Shown one piece after another: positions 39,001-48,000 of a DNA stretch of 64,000 nt. The first letter of the stretch is position 1. Each line of letters starts with the position of its first letter. Made by a program: the position numbers. This DNA comes from a plasmid: the NCBI RefSeq assembly GCF_054482595.1, contig NZ_JBTHVH010000004.1; one strand, written 5' to 3'.

Positions 39001-42000
39001 GCGCTGGCTGGCGAAGGCGGGTCCGCCAGAAAGATCGAATCGTGCCATTTCAATATTACGGGCATCTACTGCCCGGATGAAGGCATTCTGAACTTTACCA
39101 AAGTGCTGCTGGAGCTTTTCACCATTGTAGATCTGAACGATGAACACAATTTTCTCGTACTGAGCGTCAAGGGAATTCAGGCGCACAATAATTTGCTCAT
39201 CGTCACCATCACCGGCTCCGGTTCGGTTATCGCCCGTCAGCCAGATATTTCCTGACTTATGGCGAAGGCTGTTGAAAAAGATGATATCGCCATTCACAAG
39301 CGTTGGTTTACCATTTTCCACATTGCCGAGATCGGTCACCTTTCCGGCTGAATTACACAGGAAAGCGATCACATCAAGGTCGTATTCTTCTTCTTTTTTA
39401 CCAAAGATCCCGCCGAGGAAACCTTTCTTTTCCTCATTAATATCCCAACCCAGGCCGATAGTAACGGACGAGAGATCGTATTCATTTTTTTTCAGGCTTA
39501 CGCCCTGGCCTTTGCTCAGACTGACAGACATGACATCCCCTTAATTAATAAAATTATAAGACCACGTTTACTTCTGGCGGCGGCGGTGGCAGGTCTTCAA
39601 GACCGATCACTTCTTTTTTGCTGGACTCCACTTTCTGACTGCCTACCGAAATGCTCGCACTGACCCATTTAAAGAAAGCTTTAATCGTCGAACTGTCAGC
39701 TGTATCGAGCTGAACCACGATTTCAGTGATTTCTTTGAGGACGCTGGTATCGGCATCATGCCCGGCTGCACATGCCACAACAACGCCGGTTCTGGCCGCT
39801 TTAAAGTCATTCAGGCCTTTACGCCAGTCATCATTCGGACTTCCATCCGTCATCAGGAATACAAGGGGACGCCAGTCACCTTTAGTGTCAGCCGTCGTTT
39901 TCTGTACTTCTTTGGCAATGGAGCTGGCCGTGAGGGAAAGCGCTTCGCCAAGAGAGGTGGTGCCGCTGGCTGTTAGTGCTGGCATCTGGAAACTCAGGAG
40001 GTCTGTCAGGGGGACTGCCTGTCGGGCTGAAGAATCAAAGGTGATCACTGACACGTAAGCCGTTTCGAGTGCATACGGATCCTGTTTCAGCGTGGTAAGC
40101 AGCGTCTGAACGCCATTCTTAACCGCTTCGATAGGCTCTCCGTGCATAGAGCCGGACGTGTCGAGTAGCAGATATACGGGTAAGCGTCTCAAATGTAATT
40201 CCTTCTTAAGAGATCGGAAGAGGAGAGTAGTTTCAGGAAGAGGCCAGAGTTTGTAGATTTGATAAAACGGCACGACATCTGTCGGGTGGAGATTAAATAC
40301 TCAGAAGCGGCATTAAAGAAATAAGTTAACCACCATTGAATTACCGACATGTGAATGGCCTCTTATCAGAGAAAAAAATTCAGACCGTACTGGAATATAA
40401 ATTTCTGAAAAAAACTCCGGCAAAAATAAACTTTCTTATGTATGAAAATCATCATACATCACAGATCTGCATGAATGGAGTGTAAATCGCCCAAAGATTG
40501 ATGTGTAGCACAAGAGGATGTCAAGACACCAGGTTTTGTAGGCAGAAAGGCGCTGCTGACATTGCGGGAGGAGAATAGATCAAAACTCCGTCACGCAGAT
40601 ACAGAGGTGAAATATGACAAAACCGGGGTTTTCACCCCGGTCTGAGATTTAGCGTCAGGACTTTTTAGCGCTGTATTCTTTTATCAGTTCATCAACGGAG
40701 TGCAGAGCCAGCTTCTCTACCGCTTCACTTCGGGTCGAGCCACTCAGCGCAGCCAGACGGTCAATTTTTCTTAAAATCCGCATGCGTAGCGATAATGACA
40801 CGGCTGTTTTTTTATCCTTATCGAGTACGACCTTCCCTGTGGACTCACCGGTTTTCAGTTCAGCATTCTGTGCGAGCGCTTCATTCATCCGGCGAAGGGT
40901 CTTTTTATCCAGCTGGCCCGGATTAACGAGATGGTAGGAATGACCTGCCTTGCTGTATTTGATCTCCGCAGAATATGACTCGCGTAGCTCTTTGAGTGCC
41001 CGGGTTAATGTCGGCTCTGAGCATTCCAGACTGGTTATAATGTCGGCAGCGGAAACGGGCTTGCCGGTGCCCAGTAAGTTGGCAAGCTTAAAAATCCGGG
41101 CCTGTCTGGTATTTAATTGCATCGTAAGATTTAGCCTGCTTAAAGGGTTAGTGGTTCAATAGGCTGAAAAATGAAGGTACTGCTCATCTTTCGAATAACC
41201 GGGTGATCGCCTAACGCTTCAACCGGATCAATGTGTTCTAAGCCTGCAAAATTTACTGACGACATCTGGCTGCGACTGCATTTGCAGGACAGGATATACT
41301 CATCCTCCAGATAGCCGGTCCGCTTACTGACCCGTTGCGTAAAGCCTGACACAATCACGTTGTCGAACGGTAGCGTATGTAAAACGATACCGACCAGGCG
41401 GAACAAGCAGCCATGGACGTGGCGGGCATAGTTTTCGCGTACGGCTTTTTGCGTCATGGCTTTTTCCGTCAGCTCCGTGCCCCGGGCATTAACGCCGTAA
41501 ATCTTATCAGGGAAATCTTCAATCTCAGCTAAATCAACATCCAGCAGGACTGCTGATAGCTCCGGCTTTACTTCAAATGCAACAAGCGTTTCACGCGGCC
41601 ATTCAGTTTCTGCCAGCACACCCGCCAGGTATGATTCGAAAAACGCGGCGTCTGTCCGGAACTGCTGCCGGGCATCTGCCTGAGCCGTGGCGAGCCGTTT
41701 TTCATGTTCTTCAGCCTCAAACTTCCAGTTTGCATACTGTTCGGCCCAGGCCGTCCGTTGTTGCTGGTACCGGTGCTGTCGAAGGGTATTCTCACGCTCC
41801 ACATCAATCAGCTCCTGCTGCCACCGGCGAAGATTTTCGGCGTGGCGCTCAGCTTTAGCTGATTCCGATTCAAACCATTTACCCAGAAAACTAATGCCTT
41901 CGCTCTCGGCAGGCTTTTCCGGCAATGCAAGATAGTCTGGCTTTTCTGGACGCACCGGTGCCGGAACCTGAAAAGGCGACGTTCTGTTATGCAGGTATAC

Positions 42001-45000: not shown

Positions 45001-48000
45001 GGAGCCAGTCCACCAACATGGACTGTTCTTCCGTCATAAAGCTTCGTGGATTCAGGGTGCGATCAACGGCACCGGTACGGAATGGCTCCAGGGCCAGCTC
45101 GTCCACCATTTTACGACGGGTCTGAAAGAGCGTGTCGTCAAGGTCGCTCAGAACAACGGGTTTATTCATAGGTAACAATCTCCACGACGGGCGCAACCTC
45201 AGCCAGGGCTTTAAGAAGCTGCGTGTCAATACTTTCTGCGGGTGTCTCAGTACACACAAGAATACGGTCAAACTGCTGGTGGGCGACGTTATAGACAAAA
45301 TTGGGGATGCCCAGCCCGTAGTTATCCGTAAAGGAAATGGCGGACTCAATGGCATAACCAACGGCGATAGGGGAGCGGGTGGTCGAACCATAAAGTGCCT
45401 GTGCTCCGGCAGCTTCGAGCCGTTCAGCAAGCAGGAACGGCTCCCAGACGAATTCCCCGGTCCCGAGAACCAGAATACGTTCCCCCTTGCGGACGGAGAC
45501 CTCATGGCCGAGATCGGCCGCAGGTGCGAGCATCCCCAGTCGACCCCAGGACTGTTTTCCCAGGATGTCCCATTCTCCGCGTGAAGTTACGTTGACTTTC
45601 GGCATGTCCGGGACAGGTGCATCAGGTAATGGGGTCCATCCCCACTGACCGCTTACAAGCGAAACCGAAGTGACGGGCAAGGATGTGCGCTCCGACAGGG
45701 CGTTGCTACTCCAGTCGGTAAGCGTAACGGCGATAACCTGTTCAATATGTTGAAGCTTGCCGGTATTACGCAGGGCAGAAAGCAGGTTAATAAAGGTATT
45801 ACCGGTGGTTGCCTCGTCATCAATCAAAACCAGCGTTCGTGCGTTGGTAACACGACGTCTTTTCTCTTCATCATCTGGCAGATAGATCAGATGATCGGTG
45901 GCGTGGCTGTGTTCTTCCTTGAACTCGCAAAGTAACGTGCCATCAACCGGGTGACGGGTAGAGGTCAGATAGACAGATTCACGATGCTGGTGGCGCACTT
46001 CATCAAACACACCGGCCCCTAGCCCAACGGCGGTTTCAGCCATACCGATAAAAAGTACGGGCCCTGCCAGCGTTGCGGGGAACTGGCTGGCAAGCTGTCT
46101 GTAGGCCTGCCGCATGACTGAGGGTGGCACGGGAATGTGCCTGCCGAGTACTTTGCTGACAAACAGAAAGGCGCGTTTCGGGTTACGTCTTTCAGCGATA
46201 TCAAACAGGTCATCGAGCGAAACATCACCCTGGTCGCGGGTTACCTGTATCGTACCGCATGAGAGGGTACGGCGATAAATCATATCTTCGAGGGTATCAG
46301 ACATAAACACGCCTTAATTCAGATGGTTAGAGAGTGATTCCGGGTAAACGATGACATCTGTGATGGATCTCACTGCAACCGGAGAAAAGGTATTTCTGGC
46401 GCTCTGGATCACCGCATCTTCAGACATCAGACCGAGCTTAAAGGCAGCAAACAACCCGGGAAGGTTCACCCCGCTGTGAAGGGTATAACCCACCCCGCCT
46501 GACGGACGCATGTTGGTTTCAAGCAGCACCGGGTTGCCATTCACATCGTTTCGCGTCTGAACATTCACCAGCCCGTCGGCCTTCATAACCCGGGCGCAGT
46601 CACAAGCCAGTTCCCAGGCGCTTCCTTCGTTTACCAGATACTGGATAGCCCCTTCCTTACGGCGTCCCACGGCTGCGAGTATTTCGCCCTTATCCGCGAG
46701 GATATCGACGGAAAATTCCGGGCCTGGCAGGTACGGCATCAAAACAAGGGGTTTAAACGACTCAGAAGCCGATGCTGCTGCAATATACTGTTGCGGACTG
46801 ACCAGACGATGTTCGGGATGATTAAAGACGGCCATGGGCGAAGCACTGTCATCAAAGCGCCAGAATCCCATGCCATAGATACCCGTCACCGGCTTCACGC
46901 ATACCGGGCTGTCCGAGAACGGCGGGGCCGCGAGGTGCGTCTTTAATTCTGCCAGCGTATTCACCCGCCAGGACGGTACGACCGGGAGCCCGTTTTGCTC
47001 CATAAACTGAGCAAAAGTAACTTTTTCGTCAGCCAGAGTTAACCAGTCGACGCCTGTTGCACCGGTAGTAAGGGTGGCTCCGGTCGATTCAATGGCTGAA
47101 CGGTGTTCTTCAAACCACTGGCTGTTACGGCCAGTATGAATATGGTGGATGCCGTAGGTCTGAATGGTTTCCTGAATAAACTGAAGACGTTTTTGAGGAT
47201 CTTCAGGTTCAGTCAAAGAATAATCGGCAACGGAAAGAATTTCATGTCTTTCGTTACGGTGGGAGGCAAATACGGTAATAGCAAAATTATTTTTTTGTGC
47301 AAATGATTTTACCCCCTGAATAATATCTCGCTGGGAGGACAAACCTTCCATAAACCAAATTTTCTTGTTCATTTTTTTTAATTATCCGGAACGCCATGCA
47401 AATTTATGATTGAGAAGTGAGTCTATGAGTGTCTACGCTACATGTCAATCATAATATGATTAATAACTTCAGTGGTTATGGAGTGCGTCAGTGTTTTTTT
47501 AGTACCTTATAACGTATTGATATTTAAATTAAAAATAGAAAAATGAACACCATGAAAAGGATTTATTTTTGTGTTTTTGAAGAAAACTACCAAAATTTCC
47601 CTTGTCAGAGAACTTCATCATGATATGATTTTCTTCGTCAGTTACTAAATATACCTTTGATTGTCTCGGTCATTACCATTTTAAGGAATAAAACATGGTT
47701 TCATTAGTTAAGAACCAGACGGTATCACTCAGCAAAGAATCATCTGCATTAAGCCAGCTTCATTTCGGTCTCGGTTGGGATCCGGTTAAGAAAAAAGGTC
47801 TTCTTGGAGGATTGTTTGGAGGCAACGACTCAATCGATCTCGATGCTGGCTGCGTATTAATGGACAGCACCGGTAAAACAATTGACACCATCTGGTTCCG
47901 CAAACTGGAATCCACCTGCGGCGCTGTTGTGCACAGTGGCGATAACCTGACCGGTGAGGGTGACGGTGACGATGAGGTGATTAAGGTCAACCTCTCCCGA

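Follow-up and report, generated by a model that had tools for sequence, protein, structure and literature searches.

What does the enzyme operon of the ter locus make? The locus has been linked in the literature to virulence, gut fitness, and resistance to phage, colicin, and metals, and its usual experimental description consists of terWY1XY2Y3 and terZABCDEF; an operon of enzyme genes accounts for half of the locus, yet it is left out of most experimental papers. We addressed this question in a 64,000-nucleotide stretch of a plasmid (NCBI RefSeq assembly GCF_054482595.1, contig NZ_JBTHVH010000004.1), hereafter called the window. Our preferred answer, to which we give a probability of about 0.6, is that the operon represents a Ter-associated biosynthetic module of an IncHI2-type plasmid, regulated by TerW, whose five enzymes would form a phosphoribosyl-derived, nucleoside-like molecule. 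This reading is already known and restates a published prediction: the Ter-associated module and its nucleoside-like, ribose-phosphate-derived product were predicted by comparative genomics in Anantharaman, Iyer & Aravind 2012 (Mol Biosyst, PMID 23044854), and later papers repeat the product prediction without adding to it. The present analysis adds the link to a solved structure of an orthologous phosphatase, a four-gene core, and natural fusion proteins. Knowing the product would account for the control of the Ter proteins and might bring to light a previously unseen bacterial metabolite that signals or protects.

The first-pass annotation of the window had placed six minus-strand open reading frames (ORFs) in front of terW and had described them as divergent from terZ. 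All seven genes were confirmed at the following positions, which agree with the RefSeq models of a plasmid that is 100% identical here (lengths in amino acids, aa):

46314..47372, minus strand: ATP-grasp ligase, 352 aa
45162..46304, minus strand: phosphoribosyltransferase (PRTase) with a C-terminal TRSP domain, 380 aa
44396..45169, minus strand: HAD-IIB phosphatase, 257 aa, "hypothetical" in the RefSeq models
43315..44394, minus strand: StiP, 359 aa
42359..43315, minus strand: C-C lyase, 318 aa, HpcH/CitE-family in RefSeq
41140..42348, minus strand: DUF4236 protein, 402 aa
40655..41122, minus strand: terW (RefSeq name), 155 aa, last gene of the unit

From the ATP-grasp gene to terW, the gaps between successive genes are 9, -8, 1, -1, 10, and 17 nt, the HAD and PRTase genes overlapping by 8 nt, and an AT-rich spacer of 322 bp separates the operon from the divergent terZ (47695, plus strand). 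At three genes the longest possible ORF (starts at 44460, 45505, and 46310) extends too far; the shorter starts, already proposed as corrections, are backed by homologue lengths and by RefSeq. Both motifs quoted in the first-pass annotation were recovered: the PRTase contains VLIDDEATTGNTF, and the HAD protein contains LSDLDDTLF. The operon had been counted as six genes. These six are present, but only five of them encode enzymes, and because terW lies 17 nt after the DUF4236 gene and is itself followed by a terminator-like hairpin, the genes from ATP-grasp through terW appear to form one seven-gene transcription unit.

The enzymes fall into Ter-specific families. The Pfam models of the 2012 Ter module, PF15632, PF15609, PF12500, PF11202, PF15608, and PF15617, matched at 5e-23 to 9e-114, values well outside those of chance, which supports the phosphoribosyl-derived metabolite previously suggested for this DNA. 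Single-sequence searches of the PDB were uninformative for the ATP-grasp, PRTase, StiP, and DUF4236 proteins; the folds and distant relatives of the first three were reached through family profiles and AlphaFold2 (AF2) models. The ATP-grasp protein matched ATPgrasp_Ter (PF15632) at 2.7e-37, a family that Pfam names "ATP-grasp in the biosynthetic pathway with Ter operon". Its family profile matched the ATP-grasp domain of carbamoyl-phosphate synthetase (1.9e-11) and PDB 2PN1 (~1e-11), and the ATP-grasp signature, a lysine (K160) and an E-x-N pair (E285 and N287), was invariant in 44 homologues. The PRTase matched PRTase_2 (PF15609; 1.8e-63) and TRSP (PF12500; 5e-23). It carries a canonical type I loop for phosphoribosyl pyrophosphate (PRPP), LIDDEATTGNT (VLIDDEATTGNT), of the pattern DDExxTGxT, in which D162, D163, T167, G168, and T170 are invariant across homologues. 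The structures nearest to its model were APRT, XPRT, and OPRT, and PurR was also among the matches.

The protein that had been called a second PRTase-like or StiP-like protein matched StiP (PF11202) at 4.9e-89 and the RNA-binding-type domain PELOTA_1 (PF15608) at 4.6e-25. The top PDB matches found by Foldseek for its AF2 model (predicted local distance difference test score, pLDDT, 92.6) were HGPRT and PyrR, and they include no protease fold; StiP thus models as a PRTase fold, contradicting the "cysteine protease" label of RefSeq. Its loop is not the canonical PRPP loop: VFVDGWTGKG holds a single acidic residue and falls two positions short of it. This divergent loop, VDGWTGKG, is invariant in 67 sequences. 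A second motif, H227-G-C229, is also conserved (His in 80/80 and Cys in 77/80 sequences), and thiol catalysis by StiP may be considered on this account.

The lyase matched C-C_Bond_Lyase (PF15617) at 9e-114. It had been described as an HpcH/HpaI-type aldolase; the CitE/HpcH superfamily holds, whereas the family profile lay closest to CitE-like citryl-, malyl-, and acyl-CoA lyases of the PDB (3e-21 to 4e-12) and reached HpcH at just 2e-6. The CitE/HpcH signature is present, with the acidic pair in CLEDA (E43 and D44), a substrate arginine, and Mg ligands; in 80 sequences, D44, R83, E134, K236, and E280 were invariant and E43 and D169 nearly so. By these comparisons the protein is closest to the TIM-barrel acyl-CoA lyases of CitE type. 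It has the fold signature and catalytic residues in common with citryl-, malyl-, and citramalyl-CoA lyases, CLYBL, and RipC (the last matched at 1.7e-8, with 34 bits against an equivalog cutoff of 375), and differs from the CitE-like lyases proper in belonging to the distinct Ter-specific family PF15617. This family is small: a search of 1.84 billion representative proteins gave 857 clusters at 50% identity.

In the HAD protein all four HAD motifs (motif I, DLDDT) are conserved across 75 homologues. It had no Pfam match below 1e-3 (Trehalose_PPase gave an i-E of 0.0088), weak NCBIfam matches to HAD-IIB models of the sugar-phosphate phosphatase type, and a full-length match at 2.7e-43 to the HAD-IIB structures 6D3V/6CJ0, named "trehalose phosphatase". 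With catalytic motifs invariant across 44-82 homologues, the enzymes of the operon look active. PADLOC-DB v2 gave only marginal matches, to PRTase_III-A of retrons (8.5e-4) and to the helix-turn-helix (HTH) of WYL regulators (4e-5), and PHROGs gave nothing meaningful for the enzymes.

We next compared the locus across species. One genome per species was scanned with an alignment of 18 lyase sequences, which yielded at least 505 loci; 80 of them were fetched and twenty ter-locus proteins were mapped onto these. The counts below refer to 68 loci in which the sequence extends 6 kb or more to each side of the lyase gene. A TerD-family gene was located within 10 kb in all of them (68/68), TerB was found in 63/68, and TerC in 58/68. 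The PRTase, HAD, StiP, and lyase genes were contiguous and collinear in 63/68 loci. ATP-grasp was present in 50/68, being missing, for example, in Xenorhabdus, Rahnella, and Rouxiella, and TerW in 22/68, nearly all of these loci belonging to Enterobacterales. Judged by this distribution, the conserved core chemistry is that of PRTase, HAD, StiP, and lyase, to which ATP-grasp is usually added, while TerW and DUF4236 are lineage-specific Ter-associated add-ons and not biosynthetic members. Natural fusions join the lyase to StiP (P0171, 683 aa), to PRTase_2 (P0229, 874 aa), and to HAD (P0208, 543 aa). Such Rosetta-stone proteins are strong independent evidence that the enzymes act in one pathway, and together with the TerD synteny they support a single Ter-linked pathway.

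The window carries the archetypal form of the module described in 2012, that of R478/IncHI2, with the same five domain families, the same gene order, and the same linkage to terZABCDEF; its lineage differs from most other Enterobacterales in having the extra DUF4236 gene between the lyase gene and terW. From the chemistry of the families we infer the following scheme. The CitE-like TIM-barrel lyase would make or trim a carboxylic acid or acyl-CoA block by C-C chemistry of the Claisen/aldol type, and the ATP-grasp enzyme would catalyze an ATP-driven carboxylate-amine ligation, in the manner of PurD, PurT, and PurK of the purine pathway. PRTase_2-TRSP would then couple the ribose-5-phosphate of PRPP to a base-like nucleophile with displacement of pyrophosphate, and the HAD-IIB phosphatase would strip the 5'-phosphate to give the nucleoside-like product. 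StiP might perform a second ribosyl transfer or be a partner that binds RNA and senses nucleotides. The product may act on a membrane complex of TerB, TerD, and TerC as a ligand or signal and would not be needed for basal tellurite resistance. TerW would be the regulator and DUF4236 a variable accessory, neither taking part in the chemistry. Routes to nucleoside-like molecules that use a PRTase and a phosphatase are known from CobT/CobC (alpha-ribazole) and from C-nucleoside antibiotics. In such routes, a PRPP-type transfer gives a ribosyl-5'-phosphate, from which a phosphatase frees the nucleoside. The likeness is an analogy of working only, and we know of no sequence relationship of the module enzymes to CobT or CobC.

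Several observations weigh against this scheme. The sole biochemistry reported for an orthologue, that of the Pseudomonas aeruginosa HAD protein (6D3V/6CJ0), concerns the hydrolysis of a sugar phosphate, trehalose-6-phosphate, instead of a nucleotide. StiP may be no transferase, given a PRPP loop with only one acidic residue and two positions fewer than the canonical one. ATP-grasp would not be essential to the core chemistry, as it is missing in 18/68 loci, and both the sequence of the steps and the nature of the base are purely inferred. In the literature to mid-2026, subscription journals lying outside the coverage, we found no experimental product and no further enzyme assay. Furthermore, terZ-F alone in Klebsiella and terBCDEF alone in Escherichia coli confer tellurite resistance, and the module is therefore dispensable for this resistance. 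In favour of the scheme, a stiP mutant of Acinetobacter baylyi is reported as tellurite-sensitive, and the A. baylyi stiP gene lies in this same module (locus L081).

The crystallised Pseudomonas phosphatase deserves separate description. The P. aeruginosa protein of 6D3V, 6D3W, and 6CJ0 is 99.6% identical to the product of a plasmid gene on CP109686.1 (locus L002, 11992-12750), which sits between the PRTase_2 and StiP genes of a Ter module. Over its full length it is homologous to the window HAD protein, with ~36% identity by tblastn, and it occupies the same operon position. The enzyme was published as a trehalose-6-phosphate phosphatase (Cross et al. 2018, PMID 29688811) and is reported to have been used as such in inhibitor assays. 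BLASTP against OtsB of E. coli was not significant for the window protein (E 0.07) or for the Pseudomonas protein (E 0.015). No trehalose-phosphatase model was among the NCBIfam matches of the window protein, and neither the operon nor the 80 related loci contained a trehalose-6-phosphate synthase (OtsA) or another glycosyltransferase. An OtsB identity of the window HAD was rejected on the values for OtsB and Trehalose_PPase and on the missing OtsA partner. Hydrolysis of trehalose-6-phosphate is probably a side activity of the Pseudomonas HAD, and the trehalose label, which has now spread into genome annotation, probably does not describe its physiological role; both this label and that of "cysteine protease" are probably misleading. 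No paper connecting the trehalose-phosphatase literature with that on Ter modules was found in the open-access literature.

Other explanations of the operon were weighed against the same evidence. The module could be a signal generator whose ribose-derived second messenger of stress or infection is recognised by TerD and/or TerB domains; Ter would then be a defence system based on small-molecule signalling. We hold this view tentatively and as rather unlikely. It is raised because the operon of Pseudomonas sp. dw_612 (locus L046) has a gene for a TerD-domain protein fused to an HtrA/DegP-like serine protease (5782-6951), placed between those for ATP-grasp and PRTase; signalling immune systems typically pair sensor and effector in this way. 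The same locus has an extra HAD of the HAD-IB class after the lyase gene (10870-11718), and most other Pseudomonas loci give a TerD-like match at the position of the fusion; the E. coli locus has neither the fusion nor the extra HAD-IB. If signalling were the function, the crystallised Pseudomonas phosphatase would be the enzyme that matures or ends the signal. It is unlikely, to a somewhat greater degree, that the module is partly regulatory or RNA-directed, with StiP sensing a nucleotide or PRPP-like ligand in the manner of PyrR and PurR, or phosphoribosylating RNA, and the other enzymes making or removing the ligand. The PELOTA_1 domain, the presence of PyrR among the top structural matches of StiP and of PurR among those of the PRTase, and a StiP loop that is invariant yet non-canonical would all suit such a role, and the 2012 analysis is said to have predicted an interaction with RNA as well. 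StiP differs from these regulators in having the PELOTA domain in place of the RNA surface of PyrR or the winged HTH (wHTH) of PurR. Its fusion to the lyase and its constant place between the HAD and lyase genes fit a pathway enzyme better, its invariant histidines and arginines are also consistent with catalysis, and no RNA element turned up here, although no search was aimed at RNA elements.

A sugar-phosphate pathway, leading for instance to a trehalose-like stress protectant with the HAD as a genuine trehalose-6-phosphate phosphatase, seems very unlikely to us. The assay of the Pseudomonas enzyme is the main evidence in its favour, and the deposited names of the three structures, the full-length match to them, and the weak HAD-IIB sugar-phosphate profile matches point the same way. 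However, the crystallised enzyme is itself encoded in a Ter module between PRTase and StiP genes, the operon offers no trehalose-6-phosphate synthase or other glycosyltransferase, the similarity of either HAD to OtsB is not significant and that of the window HAD to Trehalose_PPase is marginal, and two PRPP-type enzymes would have no role in trehalose synthesis. Still less credible is StiP as a cysteine protease that acts on Ter or envelope proteins, with loosely related enzymes as neighbours. The RefSeq name "cysteine protease StiP family protein", the A. baylyi study, cited for protease activity along with tellurite sensitivity, and the conserved H227-G-C229 would agree with it. The StiP model matched PRTase-fold structures only, the phosphate-binding TGKG loop is invariant, and the lyase fusion and the fixed place of stiP inside an enzyme operon argue for a pathway enzyme instead. 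Ordinary salvage or central-metabolism enzymes that merely happen to lie beside ter can be regarded as effectively refuted. The superfamily names PRTase, HAD, ATP-grasp, and citrate-lyase-like are common to housekeeping enzymes, but no NCBIfam housekeeping model reached its cutoff for any operon protein; the profile searches, which had been named as the check on this point, placed the enzymes in Ter-specific families, the lyase family is small, and the linkage to TerD is complete. The phosphoribosyl-derived, nucleoside-like product of a Ter-associated module thus stays our preferred reading.

The control signals and the neighbouring ter units were located as follows:

47420..47448, minus strand: sigma-70-like promoter candidate TTGACA-17-TAGACT, 10/12 consensus matches, 48 nt upstream of the ATP-grasp start
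47404-47413 and 47445-47454: two exact inverted copies of TCAATCATAA, which bracket the promoter candidate
47447-47461: 15-bp palindrome AATCATATTATGATT, which overlaps the promoter candidate of the enzyme operon
40620..40643, minus strand: intrinsic-terminator-like hairpin with a 10-bp stem, 6 G-C pairs, and a T-rich tail; it begins 11 nt beyond the terW stop
47695..53914, plus strand: terZABCDEF operon (TerD-family, TerB, TerC, and vWA proteins; RefSeq gene models), divergent
33964..40192, minus strand: terY1-terX-terY2-TerY-C-PP2C-kinase cluster, a separate unit 462 nt after terW

The promoter candidate rests on its consensus match, and promoter-like sites in the region were not enriched over shuffles. 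The hairpin was the strongest between 39500 and 48000. TerW, reported as the controller of ter transcription, has a wHTH and a C-terminal region like a ribbon-helix-helix (RHH), with weak matches to HTH and WYL-regulator profiles; its Shewanella homologue gave a weak RHH_1 match. An RNA-seq paper on Pectobacterium reported that the five orthologous enzyme genes form one operon, divergent from terZ and co-repressed with terZABCDE, that terW is under separate control, and that a palindrome protected by TerW lies in the spacer between terZ and the enzyme operon. With the narrow gene spacing, the promoter-like site upstream, and the strong hairpin behind terW, the operon behaviour in Pectobacterium speaks indirectly for co-transcription. 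In the window, the inverted pair of TCAATCATAA together with AATCATATTATGATT is a possible TerW operator, as is a perfect 22-bp palindrome, ATGTATGA-N6-TCATACAT, at 40438-40459 upstream of terY1. We describe TCAATCATAA as a local inverted pair only, since the motif was not enriched across the window (9 matches against 6.9 expected).

The terZABCDEF operon is the presumed functional partner of the enzyme module. The terY1-terX-terY2 phosphatase-kinase cluster was kept with the enzyme module in only ~11/68 species loci. The last gene of this cluster is annotated as helix-hairpin-helix here, and its Shewanella homologue matches Pkinase.

The DUF4236 protein matched PF14020 at 2.4e-21 over residues 3-56 only; no enzymatic signature was seen, and no known family matched the last ~160 residues. 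Full-length relatives occur in the phage family phrog_38135 (2.6e-38), and phage proteins often carry the N-terminal domain. The gene was present in 9/68 loci and stood directly after the lyase gene in only 1/68. A homologue in Psychromonas (41% identical; locus L083, 8001-9161) lies among TerD genes without the enzymes, and the Pseudomonas gene adjoins terF. On this distribution, DUF4236 is best described as a variable Ter-associated accessory outside the biosynthetic chemistry.

Finally, we examined the setting and spread of the locus. Many IncHI2-type plasmids of E. coli carry a ter locus that is 100% identical to positions 40600-47700 of the window. IncHI-type trh transfer genes are present in the rest of the window, and the region is therefore taken as the classical ter region of IncHI2 (R478-type) plasmids. 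The ter locus was carried by 956/5426 complete E. coli genomes (~18%), in which the related copies, mostly 95-99% identical or better, were chromosomal in 698 cases and on plasmids in 287; it is also frequent on plasmids of Klebsiella, Salmonella, and Enterobacter. The G+C content is 34-42% in the transfer and backbone part (8000-24000) against 48-55% over the ter region (36000-54000), which suggests that the ter locus came in as a block with a base composition of its own. Among the backbone genes at 1-28600 are the transfer genes trhI/N/U/F and rsp, a gene for a Tus-like terminus-binding protein, and a Hha-family gene; a trio of VWA, DUF3150, and ATPase genes lies at ~13850-18500 in the IncHI2 backbone part. 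A HipA-type toxin gene with an HTH partner was found at 56801-58424.

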